This document shows, in pieces, positions 21,654 through 60,844 of a stretch of DNA of 64,000 nucleotides (position 1 is its first letter; each line of letters opens with the position of its first letter). A program made the position numbers and the translations under genes. Origin of the DNA: Promethearchaeota archaeon Loki_b32 (GTDB taxonomy: Archaea > Asgardarchaeota > Lokiarchaeia > Sigyniarchaeales > SOKP01); contig NJBH01000003.1 of assembly GCA_005223125.1 (NCBI GenBank), forward strand, positions 1 to 64,000, written 5' to 3'. The notes below the pieces were generated by a model. The model did not search any database. It was not told the DNA's origin and saw only the letters and a list, made by a program, of their open reading frames with translations.

Positions 21654-22256
21654 ATGCCAAAAACAGAAGAGGAAAAAGGTTTTGTAGATATTGTTGATAG
21701 TAGATATAAACCTAAAGGAGTTTTTCATATAATTGAAGCAAATCAACCCATTTATAATAAAGATACGGGAAAATTAGCAGGTGTTACAAACCCAAGAGAT
21801 ATGACATATATACATACATATGGAGGAGAAGCTATATTTTTTGAATCTCTTGGTAAAGGAAGACTTATGGCTTCAAGATGCGATAACGAAAAATGTGAAA
21901 CAAAAGGTTCTGTTTATGAACCGTTTAGAATCTTTTGTCCAGACTGCTTAAGAAAAAACACCGTTGTAGATATAACAGAGAAAGCCCAGAAGACTGCAAA
22001 AATCCACTCATTTATTATTACACATCGTTCTGGAGCTTTCAATACATTGCCTAAACCCATAAAATTCATAAATGTAGAATTTGATGAAGAAGTGGTAACG
22101 ATTCTTATGAGTGTGTTAGTTGTCGGAGAACCTGAAATGGGAAAAATAGTTGTGCCAATTTTTCGAACTAAAAGTCCAACCTATACAATTATGGATTTAA
22201 TGTTTGTTGTTGAAGGTACAACCGAGTCAGAGTTACCTGAAGGCTTTACATTTTAA
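21654..22256 (+). CDS. DUF35 Zn-ribbon/OB-fold partner protein
   Basis: FFESLGKGRLMASRC..C..P.RIFCPDC followed by OB fold; GGAGG upstream. Confidence 0.88.
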   Translation: MPKTEEEKGFVDIVDSRYKPKGVFHIIEANQPIYNKDTGKLAGVTNPRDMTYIHTYGGEAIFFESLGKGRLMASRCDNEKCETKGSVYEPFRIFCPDCLRKNTVVDITEKAQKTAKIHSFIITHRSGAFNTLPKPIKFINVEFDEEVVTILMSVLVVGEPEMGKIVVPIFRTKSPTYTIMDLMFVVEGTTESELPEGFTF

Positions 22257-22491: not shown

Positions 22492-23391
22492 TTATAATAT
22501 CACATGTTCTTGCTTTAGATGAAATATTTTTCTTGCCTCTTCACCTTGAGCAATTTCTCGTCCTGAAATCTCAGCAACCTTTTTGGCCCATGCTACTTGT
22601 TCATAACTGCCTTTAGCTAATTCTCCTGTAATATTACGTGTATTATCTTCGAGACCAACTCGAATATGCCCTCCCAAAGCTGCAGCGCATAATCCACCTT
22701 GAAATTGTTGCTTAGAAACACCACATACACTCCAAGTAGCATCTGGAGGTATCAGATCTAGCAGTAGAGCGAGATTTTTTGGATTGAATGGAATTCCTCC
22801 GAGTACGCCCCATACAAATTGGAAATGTAATGGTTGTGTGAATGTACCTTCTTGTTTATTTAGGAAAAGCATATTATACAAGCCTCCTAAGTCGTAAATT
22901 TCCATTTCTGGTTTAGTTCCAGCTTTCTTCATCTCCTTCGCAAATTTCGAAATAGTTCTAAATGTATTTGCAAAAATATTAGTTGCACCCATACCAACTT
23001 TTCCTGTTCTGTAATCACCAACAGCAAAATTCATGGAGGCTGTATTTAAAGATGCTAGGGGGGGTTTATAGGTTTGAACTGGCGCTATTCTTTGTTTATC
23101 AGTTGCAACTGAACTAATAGCCGTACTCAAATTTATTATTACATCTGGTGCTTTTGATTTAATATTTTCTAGCACAGCCTTTATTAACTCTAACTCATGT
23201 GTTGGATTGCCTTTTTCTGGATCTCGAGCATGAATGTGAACAATCGCAGCACCTGCATCATAACATTTTTTTGCTTCATCTCCAAATTCTTCTGCTGTAT
23301 AAGGAACACCTGGATTATTAACCTTAGTCGTAATTGCACCAGCTAATGCTGCTGAAATAACTAACTTATTTTCTGGGTTTGATTCTGACAT
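22492..23391 (-). CDS. Beta-keto acid cleavage enzyme (BKACE/Kce, DUF849)
   Basis: AGAAIVHIHARD, SLNTASMN, KPEMEIYD, GGHIRVGLEDN. Confidence 0.93.
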   Translation of the reverse strand: MSESNPENKLVISAALAGAITTKVNNPGVPYTAEEFGDEAKKCYDAGAAIVHIHARDPEKGNPTHELELIKAVLENIKSKAPDVIINLSTAISSVATDKQRIAPVQTYKPPLASLNTASMNFAVGDYRTGKVGMGATNIFANTFRTISKFAKEMKKAGTKPEMEIYDLGGLYNMLFLNKQEGTFTQPLHFQFVWGVLGGIPFNPKNLALLLDLIPPDATWSVCGVSKQQFQGGLCAAALGGHIRVGLEDNTRNITGELAKGSYEQVAWAKKVAEISGREIAQGEEARKIFHLKQEHVIL

Positions 23392-23668: not shown

Positions 23669-24814
23669 ATGGATAAAGAAGTTGCTATTGTTGGATGTAC
23701 TCAAACTAAATATGAAGCAGATAAAATAGATTTAACAATTTCAGAACTTGTATTTGAAGTTGTCAAGAAGCTTCATAATGATTTAGGAATCACAAATGAT
23801 GATGTTGGGTGTGTAATATCTGGTTCTAATGATTTCAATGATGGGCGAACAATTGCTAATATGGCAATTCAAGATGCCGTAGGATCTGTTAGAAAATCAG
23901 AATCTCGAGTTTCTGGAGATGGTGCTTTTGCTTATGTGTATGGTGCTATGAGGATTCTTTCTGGTGAATATGATACAGTCTTGGTTGTTTCCCATTCTAA
24001 ATGTTCAGAAGGGGATCAATTTCTTATAAATAATTCAATATTTGATCCCTATTATCAACGACACTTAGGATTAGATCAAATTTCTTCTGCTGGTTTAATG
24101 GCAAATATGTATATGAGTAAATATGGAGTTAGTGAAGAACAAGCTGCTAAAGTGGTTGTAAAAAATCGGAAAAATGCTATAAATAACCCACATGCACATC
24201 TACAAAAAGAGGTATCTATGGATGAGGTTTTAAGCTCACCAATGTTAGCATATCCACTGAAAGAATTGGATTTTCCACCATATAGTGACGGTGCAGTAGC
24301 AATGCTTCTCACTAACAAAGAAAAGGCTAAAAGGTTTACAAATACACCAGTTTGGTTAAAGGGATATGCAAGTTGTACTGATGCTTATTATCTTGGACAT
24401 CGAACCATGACCGATCTAATTGGATTAGAATTTGCTGCAAAAGAAGCCTATAAGATGGCAAAAATCAAGGATCCGGTTAGGGATTTGGATGTTGCTGAAG
24501 TTTTTGAAGCCTTTTCTACACATGAACTGATGATTTATGAAGCATTAGATTTTTGTGATAAAGGAGAGGGAGGAAAATTTATAGATAGTGGAGAAACAAA
24601 TATAAATGGTACAATTCCAGTTAATCCTTCGGGTGGTGTTTTATCTAGCAACGTAGCAATGGCTAATGGATTAATTCGTGTAGCAGAAATTACTTCACAA
24701 CTAATGGGTGCAGCAGAGGATCACCAAATACCTAACGCAAAAACGGGACTAGCATATGGGATGAATGGTATCTGTTCGCAAGGAAATTGTGTATTAATAT
24801 TTGGAGGTGAATAA
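23669..24814 (+). CDS. Ltp4-like thiolase-fold protein (no catalytic Cys/His)
   Basis: SGSNDFNDGR, ESRVSGDGAFA, EVFEAF, NPSGG.LSSN. Confidence 0.85.
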   Translation: MDKEVAIVGCTQTKYEADKIDLTISELVFEVVKKLHNDLGITNDDVGCVISGSNDFNDGRTIANMAIQDAVGSVRKSESRVSGDGAFAYVYGAMRILSGEYDTVLVVSHSKCSEGDQFLINNSIFDPYYQRHLGLDQISSAGLMANMYMSKYGVSEEQAAKVVVKNRKNAINNPHAHLQKEVSMDEVLSSPMLAYPLKELDFPPYSDGAVAMLLTNKEKAKRFTNTPVWLKGYASCTDAYYLGHRTMTDLIGLEFAAKEAYKMAKIKDPVRDLDVAEVFEAFSTHELMIYEALDFCDKGEGGKFIDSGETNINGTIPVNPSGGVLSSNVAMANGLIRVAEITSQLMGAAEDHQIPNAKTGLAYGMNGICSQGNCVLIFGGE

Positions 24815-24817
24815 AGA

Positions 24818-25990
24818 ATGCCAAAACATAATGTAGCGGTAGTAGGGATTGGTCAAACTAAGTTCAGGAGTAAAAGAAGAGATGTGAATATACCTGAAAT
24901 GATCTATGAAGCAGTTAAGATGGCCCTTGATGATGCTCAAATGGAACCGAAAGATGTTGATGCCATTCTTATCGGCAATATGGATCATTTTGAAGGGATT
25001 AATTTCTCTGAGATGTGGTGTGGAATTGATGCTGCACCAGGATATCTAAAACCAGTTGTTAAAATTGCAACTGGAGGGACAACAGGGTCATCTTTAGGGA
25101 TATGTGGATATTATAATGTCGCTTCTGGGATATACAAAAACATTTTAGTTGTGGGATGGGAGAAATTAAATGAAGGAGGAGCCACAACAGGAATAATCAC
25201 AGCATTTGATCCTGTATGGGAACGCCCCTCATTGGCAGGAGCTCTAGGACCACTCGCTCTAATGGCAAATATTTATGCTGCTCGATATGGAATAACCTCT
25301 GAACAAGCAGCAAAAGTAACTGTTAAAAATAGAAGCAATGCTGCCAATAATCCATTTGCCCATATACAAATGCCTGATATTACTTTAGAAGATGTAATGA
25401 ATTCTCAAATGATATCTTATCCCTTAAGATTACATGATTGTTGTCCACAGAGCGAAGGAGCTTGTGCCGTTATCTATGCTAATGAGGAAGAAACAAAGAA
25501 AATAACAGATAATCCTGCATGGTTTAAAGGTGTGTCAACAGCTCATTACTACACATTTGGTTGTGACGATTTAATGTTTGATTTGCCCACTGCCGCCATT
25601 GCGTCCAAGAAAATATATAAGAAACTAGGTATAAAAGACCCTGTAAAGGATCTTGATGTTGCGGAGATATATGAACCTACATCATGGTCAGAACTTAGTT
25701 GGACTGAAAGCTTAGGTTTTTGCGGTAAAGGAGAAGGAGGTAAGTTATTGGATGAAGGTATAACTCAAATGACGGGAGAGTTACCCGTTAATCCCTCTGG
25801 TGGAGTATTAAGCACTAATCCTATTGGAGCAACAGCATTAGTGCGATTCGCTGAAGCTGCTATCCAGGTTATGGGTAGAGGAGGAAAACGACAAATTCCT
25901 GATGTCGAAACAGCAATGGGAATGGGATTTGGTGGATCTCTTTGGACTGAATTAGCAATATTAGGTAAAGATCCAAAACCGTTGAGGTGA
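24818..25990 (+). CDS. Ltp3-like thiolase-fold aldolase
   Basis: ATGGTTGSS (no Cys), AEIYEP.SW.E, NPSGGVLSTNPIGAT..RFAEAAIQV. Confidence 0.85.
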   Translation: MPKHNVAVVGIGQTKFRSKRRDVNIPEMIYEAVKMALDDAQMEPKDVDAILIGNMDHFEGINFSEMWCGIDAAPGYLKPVVKIATGGTTGSSLGICGYYNVASGIYKNILVVGWEKLNEGGATTGIITAFDPVWERPSLAGALGPLALMANIYAARYGITSEQAAKVTVKNRSNAANNPFAHIQMPDITLEDVMNSQMISYPLRLHDCCPQSEGACAVIYANEEETKKITDNPAWFKGVSTAHYYTFGCDDLMFDLPTAAIASKKIYKKLGIKDPVKDLDVAEIYEPTSWSELSWTESLGFCGKGEGGKLLDEGITQMTGELPVNPSGGVLSTNPIGATALVRFAEAAIQVMGRGGKRQIPDVETAMGMGFGGSLWTELAILGKDPKPLR

Positions 25991-25995
25991 TAAAA

Positions 25996-26475
25996 ATGGG
26001 AAAAAAAGAAAAGGAATTTCAGATTAAATGGAAAACAGACTTACCTTATAGGTATTCTATAGGAAAATTGGCAGTAAAATATTTTGAAGAACTTAAAAAT
26101 AAGAAGATTATGGGTTCAAAATGCCCTAAATGTGATAAAAGATATATGCCTCCGAGAGCCGTATGTGCGAATTGTTTTATTGAAATGACTGTGGAAGATA
26201 TGATAGAATTTTCTCCTAAAGGTACTTTAGTAGGATTTACAGTTGTTAATTATCCCTTTATTGATCCAAATACAGGAGGTATGCGTCCATTCCCTTATGG
26301 TTATGGAATATTCAAATTAGATGGAGCAGACACGTATATGATGCACTTTGTTGATGAAACTGATCATACTAAATTTAAAATCGGACAAAGAGTTGAAGCA
26401 GTGTTCAAAGAAAAAACTGAAGGTGATATTTATGATATTCCATACTTCAGGCTTATTAAGGAGGAGGAAGAATAA
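25996..26475 (+). CDS. DUF35 Zn-ribbon/OB-fold protein
   Basis: GSKCPKC..PPRAVCANC; I.LDGAD; GQRVEAVF; ATG 25996 follows GAGGTGA. Confidence 0.92.
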   Translation: MGKKEKEFQIKWKTDLPYRYSIGKLAVKYFEELKNKKIMGSKCPKCDKRYMPPRAVCANCFIEMTVEDMIEFSPKGTLVGFTVVNYPFIDPNTGGMRPFPYGYGIFKLDGADTYMMHFVDETDHTKFKIGQRVEAVFKEKTEGDIYDIPYFRLIKEEEE

Positions 26476-26939
26476 TGGAGGGAGAAAAAATGAATGAAGA
26501 ATTAGAAAAGAAAGTATTTAGAGGGAGAATTAAAGTTCCTTATAAACATACTGCTGGGGCCTATGTAGAGAAGTTCATAACTGAAATCGGAAAAAATAAC
26601 AAAATTATGGGAGTAAGATGTCCAAAATGTAGTAAAGTGTTTGTACCTCCCAAGATGATCTGTTTTAAATGCTTTGAAAAAATGGAAGAATGGGTTGAAG
26701 TCGGAAATCAAGGAGTAATTAAAGGTTTTACAGTAATTTCTCATTCGACGCCTGTGTTGCCTTTGAAACCTCCATTTGCTTATGGGATAATTACACTCGA
26801 TGGTGCAGACACAGATTTTGTACATATTATAAATGAGAGCGATCCTAAAAAATTAAAAGTAGGAATGCGAGTCGAAGCTGTCTTTAAAGAGAAACCAAGA
26901 AAACGAATATTGGATATTGAATATTTCAAACTAATTTAG
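26475..26939 (+). CDS. DUF35 Zn-ribbon/OB-fold protein
   Basis: GVRCPKC..PP..CFKC; LDGAD; GMRVEAVF; translationally coupled (TAATG). Confidence 0.92.
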   Translation: MEGEKMNEELEKKVFRGRIKVPYKHTAGAYVEKFITEIGKNNKIMGVRCPKCSKVFVPPKMICFKCFEKMEEWVEVGNQGVIKGFTVISHSTPVLPLKPPFAYGIITLDGADTDFVHIINESDPKKLKVGMRVEAVFKEKPRKRILDIEYFKLI

Positions 26940-27015: not shown

Positions 27016-29028
27016 TTATATACTATTTGCCACTTTGTAAGCTCTGTGAACCGCTTCTAGGACTGTTTCTGGTTTTCTTGCATCTCCGATTTTTTGAACC
27101 TTAATGTTTCTAAGTTGTTTTATTTCATTAAATAGGTTATCATTTGGTTCTACTCCAGTAGCATAATATACCATATCCACATCATTAATCATTTGTTCTT
27201 TATCTGCGGCATCAAGATAACTTACAAAATTCTCTCCAATTTTTTTAACTCTAACGCTAGTATGAAATTTAACACCTAAAGCATCACATTTATCGAGAAG
27301 TACCCATTTTGTCGTTTTTCCAAGAGCTGTACCTAATTTTGGTAATTGTTCCAATACAGTTACCTTATTTCTCCCACCATGTAACATTTTTAAAGCAATA
27401 TCTGGCTCTAAAGCTTTGTAAAATGTAAGAAAATCAAAGGCTTCAAGACTTAAAGCCCCAAATTTAGCTAAATAAATGGCAAGTTCGATTCCAGTAGCTC
27501 CTCCACCAATTATTACATTATTATTTCCAACTGGAGCATCTCCATTAAAAACATCATTAGCCCAAAAGACATTTTCTCTATCTATACCGGGAATCGGTGG
27601 CGTTATTGGATTTGATCCAGTTGCTAAAAACACTGCATCGGGATTAAATTCTTTAACAGTATTAATTGAAACTTCTTTGTCAAGATGTAAGTGGATTCCA
27701 TATTTTTGAATCCAATATAAATAATTATCAATCATTCTTTTGAATTCATTTCTTCCGGGAGGAATCCAGATGATGTTTAATAAGCCTCCAATTTTGTCAT
27801 CCTTTTCAAAAACGTGAACTTCATGACCTCTCATCGCTGCAACTCTCGCAACTTCTAATCCTCCAGGCCCAGAACCAATAATCATTATTTTCTTTTTTTC
27901 TTTAAGAGGTTTTAATTCTGTTTTAGCTTCATTTGCAGCTCTTGCATTTCTTAAACAAGAAATTGGCATCATTTTAAATATTGCATCAAAACATCCTTGA
28001 TTGCAACCAACACAAGTCATAATATCTCTCAATTCACCTTTTTTTGCTTTCATTGGTAAATATGGATCAGCTATCAATGATCTACCCATACAGATAGCAT
28101 CCGCTTTTCTAGCCATTAAAACTTGTTCCGCTAATTCAGGATTATTAATTCTATTGGAGGCAAAAACCGGGATAGACACATTATTTTTAACATTTTCAGC
28201 CAAATAGGTGTAGCATCCTTCTGGAACATCCATAGTTGTCTGGGGGGTTTTAGTTTCATGCCAACCTCCAGTTACATTGAAATAATCTAAATATTTTCCC
28301 AAGTTTTTAGCTATTGCAGCTTTTTCTTTATAAGTATTACTATCTGGAACAAAATCATCACCAGAAATTCGGTATCCTATAGGAAAATCATCTACACTTG
28401 ATCTCATTAATTCAATTGTTTCAATGGGAAATCTTAAGCGATTTTCAAAACTACCTCCATACTCATCAGTTCGGATATTAGTCTTCGGAGATACAAATTG
28501 AGTAAACAGATAACCAGCATTAGCACAAATTTCCACTGCATCAAATCCTGCTTTTTTTGCCCGTACAGTAGCATCAGCAAAAGCTTGTTGTTCTCTTTTA
28601 ATATCTTCAAGAGTCATCTCTCTCGGCGTTGTTTTACTGAAGTTACTGTAAACAGCGGAAGGAGCGATGGGAGTTTTTCCAATTATAAAAGGCATCGTAT
28701 ATGCTCCACCATGGTATAATTGGCAAACAATTTTTACATCATCTCTAGCTTTATGTAGAGCTTCTGTAAACTCTGTTAATTTTGGGACATATTCATCGCT
28801 TTCTATTGAAATCATGGCAGGTAATCCTTTTCCATATACGTCTACATAACAACCCCCCACAATTAACATACCAGCACCCCCCTTTGCCCTTTCACGATAA
28901 AAATTTATTAATTTTTTTGTGATAAAACCATTATTAGCAAGGTTAAGATTCAAAGCAGGCATAACAATACGATTGGAGACCGTCATATTCCTAATTTTAA
29001 AAGGTGTAAACAATTTAAAGAACTTCAA
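27016..29028 (-). CDS. fadH: 2,4-dienoyl-CoA reductase-like (OYE-FMN, Fe-S and FAD domains)
   Basis: [52 protein letters not shown]. Confidence 0.85.
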
Positions 29029-29261: not shown

Positions 29262-30086
29262 ATGTCTGAAAACGCAATATTAATAGAGGAAAATGAAGAT
29301 AAGACAATCACGATAATTAAAATGAATCGTTTAAGTAAAAAAAATGCGATGAATTATGATTTAATGGTCGGACTTCAAAAAGCAATTGATAAAATCGAAC
29401 GAACTAATACGAGAGTTGTTATTATAACTGGAGGAGACGATTTTTTTAGCTCAGGTATAGATTTAAACTTTTTAACGGGGCAAGAAAAAGATTCTGAGGG
29501 TGTAATTCCTGATTTACGAATTCCAAGGAATTTTAGATATTTTGCAAATACTTGGATCCATCCGATTTTCACAAAAATTGAAAAGATGGAAAAACCGGTG
29601 ATTGCTAAGATAAATGGTTACTGTTATGGAATGGCATTTGAATTAGCTTTAGCATGTGATTTTCGATTTTGTACAGAATCAGCCGAATTCCATATGTTAG
29701 AATCAAAGATAGGTATGAACCCCGACGTGGGGGGTACAATTAGACTAACAAGACTTGTGGGTATTCAAAATACTAAAGATATCATTTTAACAGGACGGAA
29801 ATTTGATGGAAATGAAGCTTATAGACTTGGAGTTGTAAATCGGGTTGTTAAAAACCATCAAGAATTAGATTCAATTATTAAAAAGTATACCGATGAACTT
29901 ATGACAAGTGGACCCCTAGCGGTAGGACTTGCAAAAAAATTAATAGATGATTGTTATGGTAAGGATACAGCTTTTGGATTAGAACTTGAAACGCTTGTTA
30001 GTTCACAATTACTTCAAACCAAAGATGCTACTTCAGGAGTGCTCGCTCGTTTGCAAAAGGTAAAACCTAAATGGCGATGGAAATAA
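29262..30086 (+). CDS. Enoyl-CoA hydratase/isomerase (crotonase family)
   Basis: FSSGIDL, KPVIAKING.CYGMAFELALACD, E..IG..PD.GG. Confidence 0.92.
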   Translation: MSENAILIEENEDKTITIIKMNRLSKKNAMNYDLMVGLQKAIDKIERTNTRVVIITGGDDFFSSGIDLNFLTGQEKDSEGVIPDLRIPRNFRYFANTWIHPIFTKIEKMEKPVIAKINGYCYGMAFELALACDFRFCTESAEFHMLESKIGMNPDVGGTIRLTRLVGIQNTKDIILTGRKFDGNEAYRLGVVNRVVKNHQELDSIIKKYTDELMTSGPLAVGLAKKLIDDCYGKDTAFGLELETLVSSQLLQTKDATSGVLARLQKVKPKWRWK

Positions 30087-33302: not shown

Positions 33303-33713
33303 TTATAAAAATTCAAATTCGAAGCGCCCAAGACTGTTCACAATTTCTAGTGCTGCTTTAGTATTACGCATTAACTTTGCCATATCACCTTCAAGTCTTA
33401 ATTTACCAGCCATTATAGCTCTTATTGGATCAATTTCTTTTTTCGTAACTGCTACAAAATTATCATAAGGTCCAGCCATGGTGGATTCTGTTTCTATTTC
33501 TTCACCTTCTGGTACCAATCTAGTTCCTGTACATTCTCCATGATGTAATCCTATAAATACTCTAACTTCATGATCTAACTTACCACTAGGTTCGATAACA
33601 AGAAGCATATCCCCTTCCCAAGTAAGTGCTGATGGTTTATAATCTGGATTTTCATTTATAGCTTTGCCAAAAGCTTCAACCCATTCTTCTGATAAAATTT
33701 TCATTCTTATCAC
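33303..33713 (-). CDS. SCP2 sterol/lipid-binding domain protein
   Basis: SEEW..A..IN; DPIRAIMAGKLRLEGDM. Confidence 0.9.
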   Translation of the reverse strand: MIRMKILSEEWVEAFGKAINENPDYKPSALTWEGDMLLVIEPSGKLDHEVRVFIGLHHGECTGTRLVPEGEEIETESTMAGPYDNFVAVTKKEIDPIRAIMAGKLRLEGDMAKLMRNTKAALEIVNSLGRFEFEFL

Positions 33714-33802
33714 TTCAGTTTTTTCAATTTAAATTTATTTTCTTCATAATTTGTTAGTATATTAATTGTTAAAATTGAATTTAAGATTTCAATTTTTTTA
33801 AT

Positions 33803-35002
33803 TTAGATTAAAGTTAAATCAATATGAATATCAGTTATGGGGTAAGACACACAGGGGTGAATATAACCATAATCTTGATCAATTTCTCTCATTGTCACTT
33901 CTGGGGGCATGAATATTTTGCCACTCACAAGTTTAGTTCTACACAAAGCACATGCTCCTGAGCGGCACCCATTATTAATAATTATGCCTAAATCTTTTTC
34001 TCTTTCAAGACTATTTAATATTGGTTCAACACATGATGCTTCAAATGTCTCTTTAACTTTTCTTCCCTGATTTAAAAACTCTATAGTAATATTCACAGTG
34101 TTTGAAGTATTAATATCTTTTGGCCAACCTATTACTTCTGTAACATCATCAGGGACCCCATAAGATTCGTAAATCATGTGATGTCTAGGGACACCCAACT
34201 CTTTCATTTGTCCTTCTATAAATGAATACATTGCACGATTTCCAACTATATAAAAGAATTTATTTTCAATTGATTTTATCTCATCTAAAATCTTATCTTT
34301 TGTAATAAAGCCGGAAGCACCATCCCAACTTGGTCCTGGTTCTGAAAGAATGTATTTAACTCTAACATTAGAACGTCTTGTTTGTATATCCTCAAGTTCG
34401 TCTTTAAATAACATATTATCTTCAGATAAACATCCAAATATTAACCAGACATTCAATTTTAAGTTCTGTTCAGAAATATCTCTCAACATTGAAATGAAAG
34501 GTGTTATACCAGAACCACCAGCAATAAAAACTAAATCGGTCCCATGAAAAACACGATTATAATACAATTCTCCTAATGGTTCTGTTGCTTCTAATATATC
34601 ACCAACTTTTATTGCATCAAGTAAATAAATGCTAACAAATCCTCCCTCTTTTCTTTTTACTCCTAATTCATAATAAGCAAGCTGATTTGGAGATGAAACA
34701 AGTGAAAAAGGTCGAGATGTTCTAACACCACTAATTTCTACAGTAAGACCAATATACTGGCCGGCTCTGAATGGAGCAAGAGGCTTATTAGGTCTTGCTG
34801 AGACGAACCGATACAGTTTAGTATCCTTAGAGAGTTCTTGTATATCTGTGACTTGCAATAATTGTTTTTCGGGATGAATACGATCACAGAGATTTTCCAA
34901 TCCATCATAATACCAAGGAATTGGCTCAACTTCATCTCGCCATTTTTTTAATTTCTCAAGTTTTTGATACTTCTTAACATCATTCATTATCTCTTTTTCC
35001 AC
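33803..35002 (-). CDS. FAD/NAD-binding reductase with C-terminal 2Fe-2S ferredoxin (Hcr/KshB/PaaE architecture)
   Basis: FRAGQY, RPFSLVSSP, GFVS, IAGGSGITPF, CRSGACALC..C. Confidence 0.9.
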   Translation of the reverse strand: MEKEIMNDVKKYQKLEKLKKWRDEVEPIPWYYDGLENLCDRIHPEKQLLQVTDIQELSKDTKLYRFVSARPNKPLAPFRAGQYIGLTVEISGVRTSRPFSLVSSPNQLAYYELGVKRKEGGFVSIYLLDAIKVGDILEATEPLGELYYNRVFHGTDLVFIAGGSGITPFISMLRDISEQNLKLNVWLIFGCLSEDNMLFKDELEDIQTRRSNVRVKYILSEPGPSWDGASGFITKDKILDEIKSIENKFFYIVGNRAMYSFIEGQMKELGVPRHHMIYESYGVPDDVTEVIGWPKDINTSNTVNITIEFLNQGRKVKETFEASCVEPILNSLEREKDLGIIINNGCRSGACALCRTKLVSGKIFMPPEVTMREIDQDYGYIHPCVSYPITDIHIDLTLI

Positions 35003-35005
35003 TAC

Positions 35006-36559
35006 TTACCACCTCCCTTCTTTGTTATCTCTTATATACATACCAGCAGCAATCCTTCCACTCAAAATACTTGATGAGAATCCACCACCAATATTTGTCC
35101 AAGCACCGCACTGATATAACCCAGGAATTGAACCACGGCTTTTTAACCTAAGTGTTGGACCATTCATAAGATCCTGAGTATATCCATAGATAGCTCCTTC
35201 TAAATTCTTTGAATATCGATAATATGTAAGAGGAGTTGCGGCTTCAACTACTTCTATATAATCACGAATCTCTGGACAAATTGTTTTTTCTACTAATTCA
35301 ACCATTTTATCGGTAATATAATCCTTGACTTTAAAATACTGGTCAGGGGATATTGATTGCCATAATTTGCCCATTTGTAATGTAGTAAGAACAAGTTGGG
35401 ATGTTCCTGGAGGAGTAATATCATCATAAATATGATTATAACAAGCTGCTACCATATATTTAGGTGGTTCTAATTTAGTAAATGTTTCATAGGCTTTATT
35501 TAAATCATCTGTCTCATTTATAAACATTTCATGAACATTCAATCCTAATTCTTTGTATGAAGCATTCAGACCTATATAAACTGAAAATGCAGATGGACCT
35601 ATTTCTGGAGCATAAATTTGCTTTTTATAACTATCTGGGACTACATCATTGGGAAGCATCTTCATTGTTGTACAAATCGGATTGACATTTGAAATTACTG
35701 TTTTACATTCATATATATCACCATTAAGAAGTTCAACACCACAAACTCTTCCATTTTGAACTAGTATTCGGTTAACTAAAGCATTAAACCTAATTTTACC
35801 ACCTAATTCTTCAAAAGCCTTCACAATAGCAGTTGTAAAAGCATGTGATCTTCCAATTGGAAAGGCAGCACCCCATTTTAAATACGTAATTAACATAGCA
35901 ACAAATGCATATGCATTTAATCGAGATGGAGGCAGACCCAAGTATCCCCATAATTGTGCGATAATTGCCATCAAACGTTTATCAGTAAAGAATTTATCAA
36001 ATACTTCTTGTAATGTAAGACCAGAAACCCGTACAAGCCATGGATGTTCTTTAAGTACTTCTGCGGGCGAATACTGACCTCTTCTTCTTACCATAAATTC
36101 AATACCCTCCAACACTTTTTGACACATATCTAAAAATTCTTCGATTCCCTTTTTCTCAGAAGGAAATAATTCAATGAGCTTCTCAATGTATTCTTCTAAA
36201 CCGATAGGTAGAGTAACATCATATCCATCTAAAAATACACTTCTATAAAACTCTGGAATTTGTTTGAATTGGATTTTGTCAGGAATTACTCCTATTCTCT
36301 CCAAAAATCGGTATAAGCCACCTTTATTGGCTTCTGTACCAATATCACTTAGTTCATGTAAGGCGCCCTCAAATTCAAACCTACCTCTTACAAAAGAAGT
36401 TGCAAAACCACCCGGGACATTATGTTTTTCCAGTAATAATACTTTCTTCCCTACAAGGGCAAGTTGACATGCAGCACCGAGTCCTCCGAGACCAGCTCCA
36501 ATAATAATAACGGGATAACTGTCTACTACTCTAGTTTTATCATAAATACTATCATTCAT
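35006..36559 (-). CDS. Phytoene-desaturase-family (CrtI/RetSat/CrtISO-like) flavoprotein
   Basis: IIGAGLGGL..A, LEKHNVPGG, ATPLT..RY..GAIYG, GLYQCGAW..GGG. Confidence 0.88.
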   Translation of the reverse strand: MNDSIYDKTRVVDSYPVIIIGAGLGGLGAACQLALVGKKVLLLEKHNVPGGFATSFVRGRFEFEGALHELSDIGTEANKGGLYRFLERIGVIPDKIQFKQIPEFYRSVFLDGYDVTLPIGLEEYIEKLIELFPSEKKGIEEFLDMCQKVLEGIEFMVRRRGQYSPAEVLKEHPWLVRVSGLTLQEVFDKFFTDKRLMAIIAQLWGYLGLPPSRLNAYAFVAMLITYLKWGAAFPIGRSHAFTTAIVKAFEELGGKIRFNALVNRILVQNGRVCGVELLNGDIYECKTVISNVNPICTTMKMLPNDVVPDSYKKQIYAPEIGPSAFSVYIGLNASYKELGLNVHEMFINETDDLNKAYETFTKLEPPKYMVAACYNHIYDDITPPGTSQLVLTTLQMGKLWQSISPDQYFKVKDYITDKMVELVEKTICPEIRDYIEVVEAATPLTYYRYSKNLEGAIYGYTQDLMNGPTLRLKSRGSIPGLYQCGAWTNIGGGFSSSILSGRIAAGMYIRDNKEGRW

Positions 36560-40865: not shown

Positions 40866-41046
40866 TTAACTCAACTCTAAAAATTTAAATTAATTTTTTT
40901 AGTAGTAATATTGCCCATATCTCTTAAAATTATTTAAAATGTCTGTAAAAATTAAAGAAAGGGAATCAGAGGTTTTTAAAATTATAAATACTACTAATCA
41001 CAATATTAATCATTATAAAAATTACAATCAAAAAAAATTTAAAATA

Positions 41047-41508
41047 ATGACTGAAAAAATAGTTGTTGCAAATAAAGGGTTAGTAAGAGCAGAATTTGCT
41101 TTTTGGGTTGGCCGATACATGGACAAGTTTTTTGATGCTTTTGAAAATAAGAAAATACTTGGAAATAAATGTCCTAAATGTGGAGATGTTTTTGTTCCAC
41201 CAAGAAAAATATGTGGAAAATGTAATATTATGATCCCTTTTGATCAAAATTGGGTAGATTTGCCAGATACTGGTACTTTAAAGAATTATACTATAACATA
41301 TTACAAAATAAATGATAGAGCCAGTCGAAAGGTTAAGAAACCTCAAATTATTGGGATGGTACAAATTGATGGGAGTAATACAGCAATAATTTACCGTCTA
41401 TTAGATATTGAACCAGAAGAAGTGAAGATAGAAATGAAAGTTAAAGTTGTATGGGAAGATAAAACTAAAGGCGACCCTTCAGATATTAAGGGTTTCGTAA
41501 AAATCTGA
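41047..41508 (+). CDS. DUF35 Zn-ribbon/OB-fold protein
   Basis: GNKCPKCG..PPRKICGKC; IDGS; MKVKVVW; likely start ATG 41047. Confidence 0.9.
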   Translation: MTEKIVVANKGLVRAEFAFWVGRYMDKFFDAFENKKILGNKCPKCGDVFVPPRKICGKCNIMIPFDQNWVDLPDTGTLKNYTITYYKINDRASRKVKKPQIIGMVQIDGSNTAIIYRLLDIEPEEVKIEMKVKVVWEDKTKGDPSDIKGFVKI

Positions 41509-41523
41509 GAGGTGATAAAATAG

Positions 41524-42666
41524 GTGCAAAAAGTAGGAATTGTAGGATTCTACCAAGTAAAATTACTTTCTGATGCAAATTATGGTCGTTATGAAATGAT
41601 CTTTGAAGCGGTAAGAGGAGCTCTTGATAAAGCAGGATTAAAGAAAAAGGATATAACAACGGTAATTTCATGTACAAATGATTATTATGATGGGAGAACT
41701 ATTTCTAATGCTTTTGCTGTTGAAGCAGGTGGTGCATACTTAGCAGATGAGTCAAAAGTAGAGATGGATGGTGCACACGCATTACTTTATGGGATGATGA
41801 GAATTTTATCTGGGAATCATAAATTAGCAGTGATTTGGGCAGGGAGTATGGCTTCATGTTTTCCATATCATTCAGCTAGATTATTTGAGACTGATCCAAT
41901 ATGGGAAAGACCTAGTGCTTATGTTAATGATATAACAGCAGCTGGGTTTCAGATGAGAGCTTATATGGAGAAATATGGGGTTAGTGTTGAAGAAATGGCC
42001 AAAGTAGTGGTCAAAAATAGAAGAAATGCATCCAAAAATTTATTAGCTTTAGAAGAAGCTCAAAATCCTAATTTAACAGTTAAAGATGTTTTAGACTCTG
42101 AAATTTATGCTGATCCGGTGACTGAACTTATGGTGGCTCAACCTTGTGATGGTATTGCAGCAATACTTTTAGCTCCAGAGAAACAAGCTTTAAAAATTAC
42201 TGATAAACCAGTATGGATTACTGGAGTAGGATATAATCAAGATGCTTATTATCTTGGCGATAAAGATTTATCAGAATCTAAATCAATGAGACTAGCAGCT
42301 AAAATGGCATACGAAGCTGCTGGAATTACAGATCCAATAAAAGAAATTAATGTTGCTGAAATATTTGAAGCATATGCTCATGAAGAATTAATCTTAAAGG
42401 AAGCTCTAGGATTTGCTGAAAAAGGAAAAGGAGCATTTTTGAATTCTGAAATTGATGGAGAGCTTCCAATTAATCCTTCTGGGGGTGCACTCGGAGGTAA
42501 TCCACCTTGTGGAACAGGATTAATTAGAATTATTGAAGCTACGAAACAAATTACAGGTGAAGCAAATGGATATCAAGTAGAAGGTGTTAAAAAAGCTCTA
42601 GCAACAGGGCAGATTGGTATGTGTGCCCAAAATAATATAGTATATATATTGGAGGGGGGGAATTAA
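41524..42666 (+). CDS. Ltp4-like thiolase-fold protein (no catalytic Cys/His)
   Basis: DYYDGR, ESKVEMDGAHA, EIFEAY, NPSGG; GAGGTGA upstream. Confidence 0.85.
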   Translation: MQKVGIVGFYQVKLLSDANYGRYEMIFEAVRGALDKAGLKKKDITTVISCTNDYYDGRTISNAFAVEAGGAYLADESKVEMDGAHALLYGMMRILSGNHKLAVIWAGSMASCFPYHSARLFETDPIWERPSAYVNDITAAGFQMRAYMEKYGVSVEEMAKVVVKNRRNASKNLLALEEAQNPNLTVKDVLDSEIYADPVTELMVAQPCDGIAAILLAPEKQALKITDKPVWITGVGYNQDAYYLGDKDLSESKSMRLAAKMAYEAAGITDPIKEINVAEIFEAYAHEELILKEALGFAEKGKGAFLNSEIDGELPINPSGGALGGNPPCGTGLIRIIEATKQITGEANGYQVEGVKKALATGQIGMCAQNNIVYILEGGN

Positions 42667-42667
42667 A

Positions 42668-43915
42668 ATGGGAAGACAAGTTTGTATCGCTAGCGCTGGA
42701 TTCAGCGAACATGCTTCAAAAAGATCTGATGTGAATATGCCAGAATTAGTCAGTGAAGCAATTGAAGATTGTTTAAAAAAAGTTCCAAGTGTCAGTGTAA
42801 ATGACATCGATGCTTTTGTTAATGGGAATATGCCTGCCTTTGAAGGTTCTAATATACCAGAATTATGGATGACTGATTGGATGGGAGCACGAAACAAACC
42901 ATTAATGAGAATTACAACTGGTGGAACAACGGGAGGATCAGTCGCTATTGGTGGATATTATACTGTAACAGCAGAATTACCAGGGATCGACACAGTTTTG
43001 GCAATAGCATTTGAACAACAATCCCAAGGGGACACTAGCACGGGCTTAGCTTCTGTTGCATATGGGGAAATATCAGTTCTAAACACTTTAGGCATTTCTT
43101 ATGAACAATTAACCCAATTATTATCTGCTGGCGCCGCAATTGGAGTTGCTTCTTACCAAGCTACTAATTATATGCGTAGAAGTAAAATTACGGAAGAAGA
43201 CTTAGCTAGAGTTGTTGTACAAAATAGACATAATGCTGCTAATACTTGGTGGGCTCATTTGAAAATGCCCGATCTAACAATCGCAGATGTATTAGAAACA
43301 CCATATATTTCATATCCTTTAAGATATGGTATGGTTTGTCCTGCGTCGGATGGAGCATGCGCCATGTTATTTACTACTGAAGAAAAAGCAAAAGATCTAT
43401 GCGATATACCTGTTTATGTAAATGGAGTAGGTAGTGTAGCTAATGAATCAGGAGTGCTAGGATATAATGGTAGTGGTGCTGGTCAATTAGATACTTCTGA
43501 ACAATTAGGAGCAATGAAATCTGCAGAACTTGCTTTTGGGCAGGCAGGCATTTCATTTCCAAGGAAAGAAATTGACTATGCTGAGGTTTATTCGCCTTTT
43601 CCAAACCAAGAACTAATGTGGATTGAAAGGTTAGGGTTGTTTGAGGAAAATACAGCTTCAGAAATGTATGAAACGGGTGTTACAGCTCTTAATGGAGAGT
43701 TACCAATAAATTGTTCTGGTGGAGTTAATTCAACTAACGCGATTGGAGCTTCAGCCATGGAAAGACCTGCAGTAGCAGCACTTCAGATTATGGGTAAAGC
43801 TAGTAATCAAGTACCAAAAACGGTACACACCGCTATTGGTCATGGATGGGGAGGTATTATAAATTTAATTACGATGATGGTGATGTCAAATAAACCTACA
43901 AGGAAAATTAAGTAA
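42668..43915 (+). CDS. Ltp3-like thiolase-fold aldolase
   Basis: RITTGGTTGGS, AEVYSPF..E..W.E.LG, TNAIGAS. Confidence 0.85.
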   Translation: MGRQVCIASAGFSEHASKRSDVNMPELVSEAIEDCLKKVPSVSVNDIDAFVNGNMPAFEGSNIPELWMTDWMGARNKPLMRITTGGTTGGSVAIGGYYTVTAELPGIDTVLAIAFEQQSQGDTSTGLASVAYGEISVLNTLGISYEQLTQLLSAGAAIGVASYQATNYMRRSKITEEDLARVVVQNRHNAANTWWAHLKMPDLTIADVLETPYISYPLRYGMVCPASDGACAMLFTTEEKAKDLCDIPVYVNGVGSVANESGVLGYNGSGAGQLDTSEQLGAMKSAELAFGQAGISFPRKEIDYAEVYSPFPNQELMWIERLGLFEENTASEMYETGVTALNGELPINCSGGVNSTNAIGASAMERPAVAALQIMGKASNQVPKTVHTAIGHGWGGIINLITMMVMSNKPTRKIK

Positions 43916-43932
43916 ATGGAGGTATTAAAAAA

Positions 43933-44463
43933 ATGTCGAAAAGAACTCAAAGAAAATCAATGGGTTATATTAAAAAAGATTATATAAGAACTCGAACAAT
44001 GCCAGGCAGCTGGTATCTTTCCAGTTATAGGTTTAAATTCAATATAACTCACTTTAAACCTTTTCAGGACAAATTAAAAGAGAGAAAATTAGTAGGTTTA
44101 CAGTGTTCGAGCTGTAATCGAGTTTTCTTTCCACCTAGACTTATCTGTGGTAAATGTTTTGTAAAACCAGATCGATGGGTGGATTTACGTGAAACAGGGA
44201 GAGTTGCTACATTTACTATAACATACTTGAAGGATCTGGAAACTGGAGAAGTATCAGAAAGACCCGTTGTATTAGTTCAACAAGATGGATCTGATACTAC
44301 ATATACTGCTCAATTAAGCCCTGATGTGGATTATAAGGATACATATATAGGAATGCCAGTTAAGGTCCACTGGGCCGAAGAACCTACAGGGGGCTTAATG
44401 GATATTCAATTTTATGATTTAGTTGAAGATAATTCAAAAGATTTAGAATTACGTAAAGATTAA
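43933..44463 (+). CDS. DUF35 Zn-ribbon/OB-fold protein
   Basis: GLQCSSC..PPRLICGKC; DGSD; IGMPVKVHW. Confidence 0.9.
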   Translation: MSKRTQRKSMGYIKKDYIRTRTMPGSWYLSSYRFKFNITHFKPFQDKLKERKLVGLQCSSCNRVFFPPRLICGKCFVKPDRWVDLRETGRVATFTITYLKDLETGEVSERPVVLVQQDGSDTTYTAQLSPDVDYKDTYIGMPVKVHWAEEPTGGLMDIQFYDLVEDNSKDLELRKD

Positions 44464-44518: not shown

Positions 44519-45583
44519 TCAAGCACTTAGATAATTAGTTAATACATTGCTAATTTTTTCAATAGAATACTGTATATCATCTTCAAATATTCCATAATGA
44601 GTTACAAATCTAATTTTTTCTTTACTGATATTGAAAGCTAAAATCCCATCTTTTCCAAGCGTATTTACTATTTTAAATATACGTACATTTTTCTTAAGTT
44701 CAACAATTACAATATTTGTTTCTGGTTTATGTACATTTATAGGTAAATCATAAGATTCAATTCCTTCAGCAAGTAGTTTTGCGTTTTTATGATCTTCTTC
44801 GAGTCGGTCAATCCATTTTTGCTCAAGCGCTATTAATCCAAAAGATGCAATTATTCCAGCTTGACGCATGCCTCCACCAAGCATTTTTCGATATCTCCTA
44901 GCATTTGTGATAAATTCTTTTGATCCAGCAACAATTGATCCAACTGGACAAGATAATCCTTTAGATAGACAAAACATGACACTATCAATATGTCTGGTGA
45001 ATTCTGTAATCGGAACTTTAAGGCTTACTGCTGCATTAAATATTCTTGCTCCATCTAAATGTAATTTTAAATCATTCTTGTCTGAAAACTCCTTCATATC
45101 TTTAATTACTTCCGGTCGAATAATTACTCCTCCGTGATAATTGTGAGTATTTTCTACAGAAAAGAGAGTTGTAGGTGGTTCATGTATATCCTCTCTATCA
45201 CGAATTAGTTTTTGGAGTTGATCAAATGAAGGAACACCTTTATTCGAAGGATAAGTCCTAATCATTAATCCTCCAATACGAGCAGCACTACCTACCTCAT
45301 TTTTGTATATATGACTTAATTCTTCTAATAGAATCTCATCACCAGGATTAGTTTGTGAGAGTAATGAAACTAAATTTCCTTGTGTCCCAGAAGTAACAAA
45401 TAATGCTGCTTCTTTACCAATAACTTCAGCTGCTCTTTTTTCCAGTTTATTTACGGTGGGATCTTCTCCTTCAACATCATCTCCAATTTTGGAATCATCA
45501 AGTGATCTGAGCATCTCCCACATTTCTTCAGATGGCTTGGTAACAGTATCAGAACGAAAATCTACAATTTTCAATTTAATCAA
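44519..45583 (-). CDS. ltaE: Low-specificity L-threonine aldolase (copy A, intact)
   Basis: DFRSDTVT, GDD..EDPT, SGTQGN, ENTHN, HLDGAR, CLSKGL, GGGMRQAG. Confidence 0.95.
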   Translation of the reverse strand: MIKLKIVDFRSDTVTKPSEEMWEMLRSLDDSKIGDDVEGEDPTVNKLEKRAAEVIGKEAALFVTSGTQGNLVSLLSQTNPGDEILLEELSHIYKNEVGSAARIGGLMIRTYPSNKGVPSFDQLQKLIRDREDIHEPPTTLFSVENTHNYHGGVIIRPEVIKDMKEFSDKNDLKLHLDGARIFNAAVSLKVPITEFTRHIDSVMFCLSKGLSCPVGSIVAGSKEFITNARRYRKMLGGGMRQAGIIASFGLIALEQKWIDRLEEDHKNAKLLAEGIESYDLPINVHKPETNIVIVELKKNVRIFKIVNTLGKDGILAFNISKEKIRFVTHYGIFEDDIQYSIEKISNVLTNYLSA

Positions 45584-59975: not shown

Positions 59976-60347
59976 TTATTTAGTTTTTAATACGATTGTA
60001 ATTGCTCTCGTTAGGCGGATAACATCCATAACTTTACCTTTTTCCACAGTTATCTGCTCTCGCGAAATCACATGGGTAAAATCTCCTTTTCCATCACATA
60101 CTTTAACGAGTGCATCAGAATCCCCAGACATTACGATGAATGCATCAGATTTAGTACCTTCAGATAAGAGAGCTTTACGATTCTTGATTTCTAAGAAGAA
60201 GGGGTCATCTTTATCTAGATTAAACTGAAAGGACATCTCCCAATCAACATCTTTTCCTGCAATATTCGTAACAAATACCGCTTGAGCTTTTGGAATTGTG
60301 TTTAATTTCTCCACGATTTTACTTAAATTTTCTTTTGCTTGTCCCAT
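59976..60347 (-). CDS. SCP2-like lipid-binding domain protein
   Basis: FQFNL..PFFLEI..ALL.EG..D..M.GD pattern; coupled to the DUF35 gene. Confidence 0.75.
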   Translation of the reverse strand: MGQAKENLSKIVEKLNTIPKAQAVFVTNIAGKDVDWEMSFQFNLDKDDPFFLEIKNRKALLSEGTKSDAFIVMSGDSDALVKVCDGKGDFTHVISREQITVEKGKVMDVIRLTRAITIVLKTK

Positions 60348-60844
60348 TATGATTCTCCTCCTTCATATTCTGACTTTGATATCCAATTTTCATACTCATC
60401 TTCGGGAACAAAGAAAAAATCAGTCATTTTACCCACCCTATCCTTGTTAAAGACCGCCCTAACTTTTTTTCCCTTTTTTATTTTTGAAGGTACTAAATTC
60501 TCAGAAAAAATCCCTTGAAGTAATGCGGTTTCAGCACCATCAAGTTTTATAAACCCTATTCCATAAGGTATCGCTTTGATAAAGGCTGAAGTGGTATACC
60601 ACACTATTGTGCTAACCTCTATTGTTCCAGTTTGTTTGAGTTCCACCCAATTTGCTGGTGTATAGCAATCAGAGCAGTTAATTCTAGGAGGCATCCATAT
60701 CTTTCCACATTTAGTACATTTCGTACCTAATAACTTCTTGTTATTCATTAACTCTATAAAAAACTTTGATTGACCTCCCATTGTGTATTTATACGAAATA
60801 GCAATTTTATCTCGTATTTCATGAGATAGAAATTCTTCACTCAT
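60347..60844 (-). CDS. DUF35 Zn-ribbon/OB-fold protein
   Basis: GTKCTKCG..PPRINCSDC; IKLDGAE; GKKVRAVF. Confidence 0.92.
   Translation of the reverse strand: MSEEFLSHEIRDKIAISYKYTMGGQSKFFIELMNNKKLLGTKCTKCGKIWMPPRINCSDCYTPANWVELKQTGTIEVSTIVWYTTSAFIKAIPYGIGFIKLDGAETALLQGIFSENLVPSKIKKGKKVRAVFNKDRVGKMTDFFFVPEDEYENWISKSEYEGGES

Follow-up and report, generated by a model that had tools for sequence, protein, structure and literature searches.

A Lokiarchaeal operon with two cysteine-less thiolase-fold proteins and two DUF35 proteins appears to be a distant relative of the actinobacterial Ltp3/Ltp4 set

The DNA analysed here, referred to throughout as the window, is the first 64,000-nucleotide (nt) stretch of contig NJBH01000003.1 from Promethearchaeota archaeon Loki_b32. 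It is AT-rich (~30% G+C) and belongs to a 4.13-Mb assembly that is 95.5% complete. Our subject is a set of four co-oriented open reading frames (ORFs) on the forward strand at 23669-26939, which we call the cassette and which encodes two thiolase-fold proteins, T1 and T2, followed by two DUF35 proteins, D1 and D2. T1 (23669-24814, + strand, 381 aa) and T2 (24818-25990, + strand, 390 aa) both match Thiolase_N plus Thiolase_C_1, while D1 (25996-26475, + strand) and D2 (26475-26939, + strand, 154 aa) each match zf-ChsH2 plus OB_ChsH2_C, in all cases above the curated Pfam cut-offs. On PF12172 and PF01796, D1 scored 37.9 and 41.6 bits and D2 scored 31.1 and 50.9 bits. Both DUF35 proteins have the CxxC...CxxC of a four-Cys zinc ribbon together with an OB fold and are 41% identical to each other, and the closest Protein Data Bank (PDB) entry to D1 is 3irb. 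The assignment of T1 as an Ltp4-clade protein draws on Pfam, NCBIfam, a motif table and trees, and that of T2 as an Ltp3-clade protein on NCBIfam, alignments to PDB structures, conservation within its clade and trees, as described below.

A preliminary description, made from the letters of the sequence, spoke of four tightly coupled genes with Shine-Dalgarno sites, and the ORF coordinates and junction sequences bear this out. A GGAGG-type site lies a few bases upstream of the next start at each junction of the cassette. T1 ends with a TAA at 24812-14, which is followed by GGAGGTG and the T2 ATG at 24818, a gap of 3 nt. The TGA of T2 (25988-90) lies within GAGGTGA, and the gap to D1 is ~5 nt given a start at ATG 25996, which is probably a likelier start than the mechanically called GTG at 25987. 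At the last junction the TAA of D1 shares 1 nt with the ATG of D2 at 26475, with AAGGAGGAGG just before. The motifs quoted in the same description were also located, with ESRVSGDGA at residues 78-86 of T1, and ATGGTTG (residues 84-90), EIYEPTSW (residues 283-290) and NPIGATALVRFAEAAIQV in T2.

As references for Ltp3 and Ltp4 we used actinobacterial records in a plasmid collection, from Tsukamurella tyrosinosolvens and Nocardia farcinica, instead of M. tuberculosis. In both, three adjacent genes encode a tandem-DUF35 protein, an Ltp4-type protein and an Ltp3-type protein, with the tandem-DUF35 gene upstream. The Ltp4-type proteins score 593-596 bits on NF005924 (PRK07937, cut-off 419 bits) and the Ltp3-type proteins 734 and 750 bits on NF006180 (PRK08313, cut-off 514 bits). 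The Tsukamurella set is adjoined by an AMP-binding ligase, a crotonase and a P450, which is the Rv3521-ltp4-ltp3 arrangement found beside fadD19/echA19.

Compared with these cut-off-passing genes, the proposal that the cassette mirrors the actinobacterial set in composition (Ltp4-like, Ltp3-like and two DUF35 domains) was confirmed. As in the Ltp3/Ltp4 set, two different Cys-less thiolase-fold proteins and two DUF35 domains are encoded by genes that lie side by side. Aligned over its full length, T2 has 41% identity to Tsukamurella Ltp3, and long stretches near the active-site motifs are shared, such as the identical NPSGGVLS.NPIGA and RFAEAA.QVMG. Both proteins have a Gly / Y-x-P / Asn signature, which reads G, YEPT, N in T2 and G, YVPF, N in Ltp3. 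The two are reciprocal best hits (Ltp3 to T2, 269 bits; T2 to Ltp3, 262 bits), and the best family for T2 is NF006180 at 377 bits, ahead of the next at 255 bits by ~120 but short of the 514-bit cut-off. For T1 the correspondence is looser. It is 28% identical to Ltp4 and scores 201 bits on NF005924, below the cut-off of 419, versus a higher 276 bits on NF006180. When Tsukamurella Ltp4 was compared with the proteins of this genome, T1 tied at 135 bits with cT1, the T1-type protein of a second cassette in the window, with T2 at 77 bits, and for Nocardia Ltp4 cT1 (131 bits) led T1 (123 bits). In the other direction, T1 scores higher on Ltp3 (181 bits) than on Ltp4 (132 bits), so that the best match of Ltp4 runs one way only. 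The reciprocal matching put forward as a check therefore stood for T2 and Ltp3 and, for T1 and Ltp4, in one direction only, and both archaeal proteins are below the NCBIfam cut-offs.

The cassette also differs from the actinobacterial set in several respects. Its DUF35 domains are on two genes, both with four-Cys zinc ribbons, whereas the N-terminal half of the Tsukamurella tandem DUF35 protein lacks a four-Cys zinc ribbon. When D1 and D2 were compared with the two halves of the actinobacterial tandem protein there was a weak preference, of D1 for the C-terminal half. T1 is of full length, and Ltp4 is shorter by about 25-35 residues. The host is an anaerobic archaeon, and the gene context is not that of steroid degradation.

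We built two trees, a FastTree tree of 188 sequences (references together with 124 sequences chosen to represent the hits of an exhaustive HMMER search) and an IQ-TREE quick tree of 58 rows under LG+C20+F+G4 with SH-aLRT support. In both, T2 lies in the Ltp3 clade and T1 in the Ltp4 clade, in line with the grouping that had been predicted for them. One clade, with a support of 0.981 in the FastTree tree, unites T2, its counterpart cT2 from the second cassette, Ltp3 and a paralogue on a Rhodococcus plasmid; in the IQ-TREE tree the SH-aLRT value is 97 for a 16-row core of this clade and 92 for the full 20-row group. The clade of T1, cT1 and Ltp4 has a support of 0.96-0.975 (FastTree) and 96 (SH-aLRT), and within it Ltp4 sits on a long branch of unusual composition. 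Outside both clades are the Cys-bearing thiolases, an Ltp2-type protein and the other Cys-less thiolase-like genes of the window, a split with an SH-aLRT of 99 in the IQ-TREE tree versus only 0.474 in the FastTree tree. Within their clades, T2 is not the direct sister of Ltp3 and T1 is not the sister of Ltp4. Given this nesting without sisterhood, along with scores short of the NCBIfam cut-offs, T1 and T2 are distant paralogues of Ltp4 and Ltp3, not orthologues. The separate T1/Ltp4 and T2/Ltp3 clades also mean that the T1/T2 duplication predates the split between the actinobacterial cassette and that of Asgard archaea and other bacteria. Judged by family scores and tree position, the operon is a distant archaeal member of the Ltp3/Ltp4 plus two-DUF35 kind. 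The Asgard clade is nested among bacterial sequences in both trees, which hints at a transfer of the cassette from bacteria to Asgard archaea, although the trees are not rooted for this question.

T2 was aligned to the archaeal thiolase 6ESQ and to zebrafish SCP2-thiolase, and a second alignment of 64 sequences included the two Cys-bearing thiolases of this genome. In the structure alignments, Gly87 of T2 occupies the position of the nucleophilic Cys, Tyr285-Glu-Pro-Thr that of the His-Asp-Cys-Phe (HDCF) motif, and Asn334 that of the His of the GHP motif, with the 64-sequence alignment concordant. The key residues of T2 are then Gly87, Tyr285, Pro287 (within YEPT), Asn325 and Asn334. T1 has Gly85 at the nucleophile position, FEAF (Phe279) in place of HDCF and Asn328 in place of the GHP His. 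Both proteins are therefore without the nucleophilic Cys, both catalytic His residues and the acid/base Cys of SCP2-type thiolases, residues (Cys, HDCF and GHP His) that are intact in the genome's own thiolases on C58 and C36. With every catalytic residue of a thiolase replaced, neither T1 nor T2 can carry out thiolysis or Claisen condensation by way of an acyl-enzyme.

The residues that T2 has instead are themselves conserved. Gly87, Tyr285 and Asn334 are invariant among cassette orthologues that are 51-58% identical to T2, and across 66 sequences of the T2/Ltp3 clade they are conserved at 97%, 88% and 95%, respectively; in 30 Cys-bearing thiolases, Cys/His/His are kept at 100%. The corresponding motif of the T1/Ltp4 clade is variable (FEAF, SEAF, YDAF, SDYY, SARY or HAPF) and differs even between Asgard orthologues that are 75-93% identical. 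Such variability suggests a partner that is inert yet remains under purifying selection, and T1 is probably the non-catalytic partner.

It had also been suggested that the Tyr of EIYEP might occupy the position of the catalytic Tyr of Ltp2, and it does: Tyr285 lines up with the HDCF His, where the Ltp2 motif YDHF has its catalytic Tyr, and specifically with the YDHF Tyr of a Nocardia Ltp2-type protein. The Nocardia protein has a second Tyr 50 residues downstream, as with Tyr294 and Tyr344 in TcLtp2, and this second Tyr aligns with Asn334 of T2. In Ltp2, Tyr294 is the base and Tyr344 the acid, and the residues named for Sal are Tyr302 and Cys304 (PMC12329534). The combination that marks Ltp2/Sal-type proteins, loss of the nucleophilic Cys with a Tyr at the first HDCF position, is present in T2 (Gly87 and Tyr285), while T1 has Phe279 at the latter position.

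Two characterised aldolases provide the closest functional comparisons. The TcLtp2-ChsH2(DUF35) steroid C3 side-chain retro-aldolase (PDB 6OK1) has, like the cassette, an SCP2-thiolase fold without the nucleophilic Cys, and T2 shares the Tyr at the first position of its HDCF-equivalent motif. TcLtp2 depends on its DUF35 partner; the DUF35 pairing of the cassette is proposed from gene adjacency, from fusions in relatives and by analogy. Unlike the cassette, with two thiolase-fold and two DUF35 genes, TcLtp2 is a homodimer with one kind of DUF35 protein, and its motif YDHF and second catalytic Tyr344 differ from YEPT and Asn334 of T2. The CtSal-Shy(DUF35) bile-acid C5 side-chain aldolase (PDB 9MYR) likewise has a Gly at the nucleophile position, a Tyr base and a DUF35 clamp, and it generates an aldehyde that is oxidised further by a separate enzyme. 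Sal is also homodimeric, however, and its acid is Cys304 of YDCY, where T2 has Pro. In these alignments, the Tyr of the base position is the only catalytic residue that T2 and Ltp3 have in common with the characterised aldolases.

Among solved structures, the best sequence match for both T1 and T2 is the thiolase-like ST0096 (PDB 4YZO), which has a Gly at the nucleophile position as they do but, unlike them, retains the His-Asp of HDCF and the GHP His. Thiolase-DUF35 complexes likewise consist of a thiolase-fold dimer flanked by DUF35 proteins, but these are real thiolases (Cys/His/His) with one kind of subunit, and they work in the condensing direction. T1 and T2 lie in the same frame with one TAA and one codon between them, and we ran AlphaFold2 on the read-through chain of 773 residues with an alignment of 29 paired rows (13 orthologous loci that are likewise in frame and 16 database entries with Ltp4-Ltp3 in a single chain). 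The model has a mean pLDDT of 82.5 and a pTM of 0.87, a value that fits two thiolase-like halves predicted to pack in a defined arrangement. A Foldseek search with the fused model returned the SCP2-thiolase fold only and did not separate aldolases from thiolases, and the highest target TM-score (0.92) and lowest rmsd (1.9 Å) were those of ST0096 from Sulfolobus tokodaii.

A survey with one genome per species yielded 560 relatives, and the best 80 of these 560 loci were examined. All 80 hold the four genes or a contig-truncated part of them, indicating that the cassette is more than a chance association. About 60 of the 80 have the order T1-T2-D-D and ~6 have D-T1-T2-D; the others either run into a contig end or, at four Loki loci, have fused DUF35 genes. 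The archaeal hosts include Loki, Hermod, Hod and Jord/Frey archaea plus one Methanobacteriota metagenome-assembled genome (MAG), and the bacterial hosts include anaerobic or soil bacteria (Syntrophales, Thermodesulfobacteriota, Acidobacteriota, Abyssobacteria and Poribacteria). The nearest homologues of T2, 90-98% identical, are in Promethearchaeota (Loki-type) MAGs, with remoter ones in Hodarchaeota, Hermodarchaeota and Jord-/Freyarchaeota. Within Asgard archaea the close orthologue is patchy, occurring in 25 of 201 sampled genomes, in 2 of 27 families and in 5 of 10 other genomes of the same genus. For the preliminary description, an archaeal host that is not known to make sterols raised the question of the substrate. 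With the cassette widespread in anaerobes and its neighbours varied, sterol chemistry is not implied and such a host is no paradox.

Some records in the survey deserve mention of their own. Contigs labelled 'Thermoplasmata archaeon' (L012) and 'Odinarchaeota archaeon' (L026) have a cassette 96% and 87% identical to that of the window, with the same neighbours, and are probably mis-binned or mislabelled. On a Streptomyces clavuligerus plasmid (L094), genes for a tandem-DUF35, an Ltp4-type and an Ltp3-type protein lie near a terpene synthase and a CoA ligase gene. Plasmid pLP1 of Rhodococcus qingshengii (L002) has a T2-type gene, a gene for a 304-aa degenerate partner and a single DUF35 gene in a MaoC / acyl-CoA dehydrogenase / CoA-transferase cluster.

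The reported split of a double DUF35 protein into two genes is real, and close Loki relatives have the two parts joined: four Promethearchaeota (Loki) MAGs encode a D1-D2 fusion, one 332-aa protein with two complete zinc-ribbon/OB units (L045:8125-9123, L043, L046 and L048). The presence of fused and separate DUF35 genes among relatives suggests that the two are interchangeable states. Three metagenomic proteins of 729-731 aa (P0233, P0292 and P0293) combine a T2-like domain, with a YDPF motif, and two DUF35 domains. From its domain content, this is a natural fusion that joins three of the four cassette parts, and in some relatives, as read from such genes, components of the cassette are physically linked. 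We also found ~17 database proteins of 708-760 aa (P0275-P0290) that read as Ltp4-Ltp3 fusions of the actinobacterial type. We set these aside as evidence because all are singletons and may be frameshifted overlapping genes.

Upstream of the cassette and divergent from it is a gene for a beta-keto-acid cleavage enzyme (BKACE; 22492-23391, - strand), which may be functionally linked to it. Downstream are an OYE/FadH-like Fe-S flavoenzyme (27016-29028, - strand) and a crotonase (29262-30086, + strand), both frequent Asgard neighbours. Across 54 Asgard loci, BKACE is the commonest neighbour (36/54), followed by crotonases (29/54 and 23/54), a PaaE-like reductase (23/54), a further Cys-less thiolase-like gene (19/54) with its divergent DUF35 gene (21/54), a CrtI-like flavoprotein (18/54), an iron-type alcohol dehydrogenase (Fe-ADH, 15/54), the OYE/FadH-like enzyme (13/54) and AOR (8/54). 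The window also encodes a long-chain-type CoA ligase, two divergent acyl-CoA dehydrogenases and SCP2. No 3-hydroxyacyl-CoA dehydrogenase gene is present in the window, with five elsewhere in the genome, and no steroid ring-degradation genes were seen in the window. For one crotonase the nominal best model is EchA19, at a non-discriminating 163 bits against a cut-off of 400. Outside Asgard archaea the company changes, with CoA-transferase A/B, a 3-hydroxyacyl-CoA dehydrogenase, BKACE and acyl-CoA dehydrogenases near the cassette at locus L088, electron transfer flavoprotein (ETF), acyl-CoA dehydrogenase and OYE in Acidobacteria, and CoA ligase, SCP2 and MaoC in Blastocatellia. Common to all loci across the domains are the four cassette genes only. 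The cassette appears to behave as a portable C-C module for acyl-CoA pathways, with no tie to sterols here.

We consider it somewhat probable that the cassette encodes a heteromeric, non-thiolytic enzyme of the Ltp3/Ltp4 plus DUF35 type that acts as a retro-aldol-type lyase on 3-hydroxyacyl-CoA. By analogy with Ltp2-ChsH2 and Sal-Shy, T1 and T2 would pair as a thiolase-like heterodimer in which a separate DUF35 protein clamps each subunit. T2 would be the catalytic subunit, with Tyr285 as the general base on the beta-hydroxyl of the substrate; cleavage of the C2-C3 bond would yield acetyl-CoA (or propionyl-CoA) plus an aldehyde or ketone, and the enolate would be held by the retained Asn325 and Asn334. 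T1 would be inert and would shape a larger substrate pocket. In favour of this reading are the lost thiolase residues, the conserved Gly87, Tyr285 and Asn334 of the T2/Ltp3 clade, the match of Tyr285 to the Ltp2 Tyr, the reciprocal T2-Ltp3 hits, the two clades of the trees, the joint occurrence at the 80 loci, the fusions among relatives and the pTM of the read-through chain. Ltp3 and Ltp4 are, moreover, regarded as aldol-lyases, needed only for C24-branched sterols (PMC6273163, PMC10398937) and essential for C24-branched side chains (PMC6273163, citing Wilbrink 2012). From the gene neighbourhood, the probable substrate is an acyl-CoA with a long or branched (isoprenoid-like) chain, unsuited to the normal dehydrogenase and thiolase steps. 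The neighbouring CoA ligase, acyl-CoA dehydrogenases and crotonases would supply it, and AOR, Fe-ADH and BKACE would take the carbonyl products. A more specific hypothesis, that the cassette is the C-C cleaving step of an oxygen-independent 'aldolytic' beta-oxidation shunt in Asgard archaea, we regard as rather improbable. In such a shunt, a 3-hydroxyacyl-CoA that cannot be oxidised to the ketone (e.g. a 3-methyl-branched, isoprenoid-derived one) would be cleaved to acetyl-CoA and an aldehyde or methyl ketone, the aldehyde would pass to a tungsten-type AOR and Fe-ADH, which would process it with ferredoxin, and beta-keto acids would go to BKACE.

A number of points weigh against a retro-aldol-type lyase. 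The requirement of Ltp3 for the breakdown of C24-branched side chains is a genetic phenotype reported for Rhodococcus (cited in PMC6273163), and the aldolase role of Ltp3 and Ltp4 is itself a genetic inference. The second catalytic residue of the characterised aldolases is not found in T2, where Asn334 replaces Tyr344 of Ltp2 and Pro287 replaces both Cys304 of Sal and the His of the Ltp2 YDHF motif, and ~12% of the wider T2/Ltp3 clade has Gln, His or Phe instead of the Tyr. At L088, the 3-hydroxyacyl-CoA dehydrogenase gene directly follows the cassette, which would suit a keto substrate, and the neighbourhood behind the substrate assignment is not conserved outside Asgard archaea. Finally, the pTM comes from an artificial covalent link and does not distinguish a heterodimer from a homodimer.

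Less probable, in our estimate, is a thiolase-fold complex with other chemistry, such as malonyl- or beta-carboxy-acyl-CoA decarboxylation, PhlABC-like acyl transfer, or an isomerase or hydrolase reaction, or else a scaffold without activity that binds lipids or acyl-CoA and brings order to the enzymes around it. The acid residue of known aldolases is absent from T2, the neighbours differ between lineages, DUF35 proteins are scaffolds in several complexes, and the Cys-less relative TbSLP has weak malonyl-CoA decarboxylase activity only (PMC12329534). However, Tyr285, Gly87 and Asn334 are strictly kept down to 51-58% identity and are kept in Ltp3 as well, and this strict conservation argues for an Ltp2-like catalytic site with a Tyr base; PhlC, moreover, retains a catalytic Cys, which T2 does not. 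We find it hard to credit that the cassette is an ordinary acetoacetyl-CoA or ketoacyl-CoA thiolase with DUF35, of the archaeal mevalonate pathway or of the proposed archaeal fatty-acid synthase type. Such an enzyme would have the same fold and the same DUF35 partnership, the public labels read 'acetyl-CoA C-acetyltransferase' and 'thiolase family protein', and several ketothiolase/DUF35 pairs have been reported in Asgard genomes (bioRxiv 10.1101/2024.07.05.601840). Against this, T2 and T1 have Gly for Cys, YEPT or FEAF for HDCF and Asn for the GHP His, separate Cys-bearing thiolases exist in the genome, one of them beside an HMG-CoA synthase-DUF35 fusion, and T1 and T2 lie outside the clade of all Cys-bearing (C, HDCF, H) thiolases in both trees. 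A true thiolase was rejected on the residues.

The part-for-part likeness to the actinobacterial tandem-DUF35, Ltp4 and Ltp3 set could also be taken to mean that the cassette is a true Ltp3/Ltp4 counterpart, which strips environmental sterols of their C24 branch or hopanoid side chains of a similar one, and SCP2, a long-chain CoA ligase and crotonases, one with the nominal EchA19 match, are in the window. We hold this to be very improbable. T1 and T2 are well below the NCBIfam cut-offs, T2 and Ltp3 are not sisters, many anaerobes have the cassette in non-steroid contexts, and an actinobacterial copy is on a Streptomyces plasmid; the EchA19 score does not discriminate, and the window showed no genes for steroid ring degradation. 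Family scores, tree position and gene context led us to reject a role specific to sterols.

Among archaea and bacteria of anoxic sediments the T1-T2-D-D cassette is common, and it is publicly named acetyl-CoA acetyltransferase or thiolase, a label that, on the active-site residues, cannot describe its reaction. Asgard metabolic reconstructions count thiolase/DUF35 pairs in favour of beta-oxidation or fatty-acid synthesis. The catalytic Cys is kept in only 2 of the 9 SCP2-type thiolase-like proteins of this genome, and counts of thiolase/DUF35 pairs therefore overstate thiolase capacity. The reaction of the cassette, once known, would also settle the role of Ltp3 and Ltp4 in sterol-degrading actinobacteria, including mycobacteria. 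If the aldolytic shunt proved true, sediment archaea would be able to feed on phytol-type or archaeal isoprenoid lipids by this route.

Three more thiolase-like genes of the genome (20228-22256, 60347-62097 and, on C37, L009:2986-4209) have the nucleophilic Cys replaced by Gly, Gly and Pro, respectively, and retain HDAF and the GHP His. Two of the three have a DUF35 partner, a divergent one of 200 aa encoded at 21654-22256 and a standard one at 60347-60844. On C36 (L011:3769-6396), a 478-aa ORF matches HMG-CoA synthase over its first ~320 residues (NF003274, 173 bits, cut-off 244), has a DUF35 OB-fold match in the same frame and adjoins a Cys-bearing thiolase (NF004810, 500 bits). These genes probably encode the mevalonate-pathway complex, in which two of the three parts seem to be fused.

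The second, diverged cassette of the window (40939-44463, + strand) is a paralogue that lies outside the operon of the first, with the order DUF35, cT1, cT2, DUF35. In the trees cT2, with the signature G, YSPF, N, belongs to the T2/Ltp3 clade and cT1 to the T1/Ltp4 clade, and at a Hodarchaeota locus (L028) both cassettes are adjacent. At 33303-36559 the window encodes, in a row, a CrtI/carotenoid-isomerase-like flavoprotein, a PaaE-like FAD/2Fe-2S reductase and SCP2. The same set lies beside the cassette at many Loki loci, with no oxygenase nearby. Just past the second cassette, at 44519-45583, is a gene for a pyridoxal phosphate (PLP)-dependent aldolase of the GntG / low-specificity threonine aldolase type (NF041359, 383 bits).

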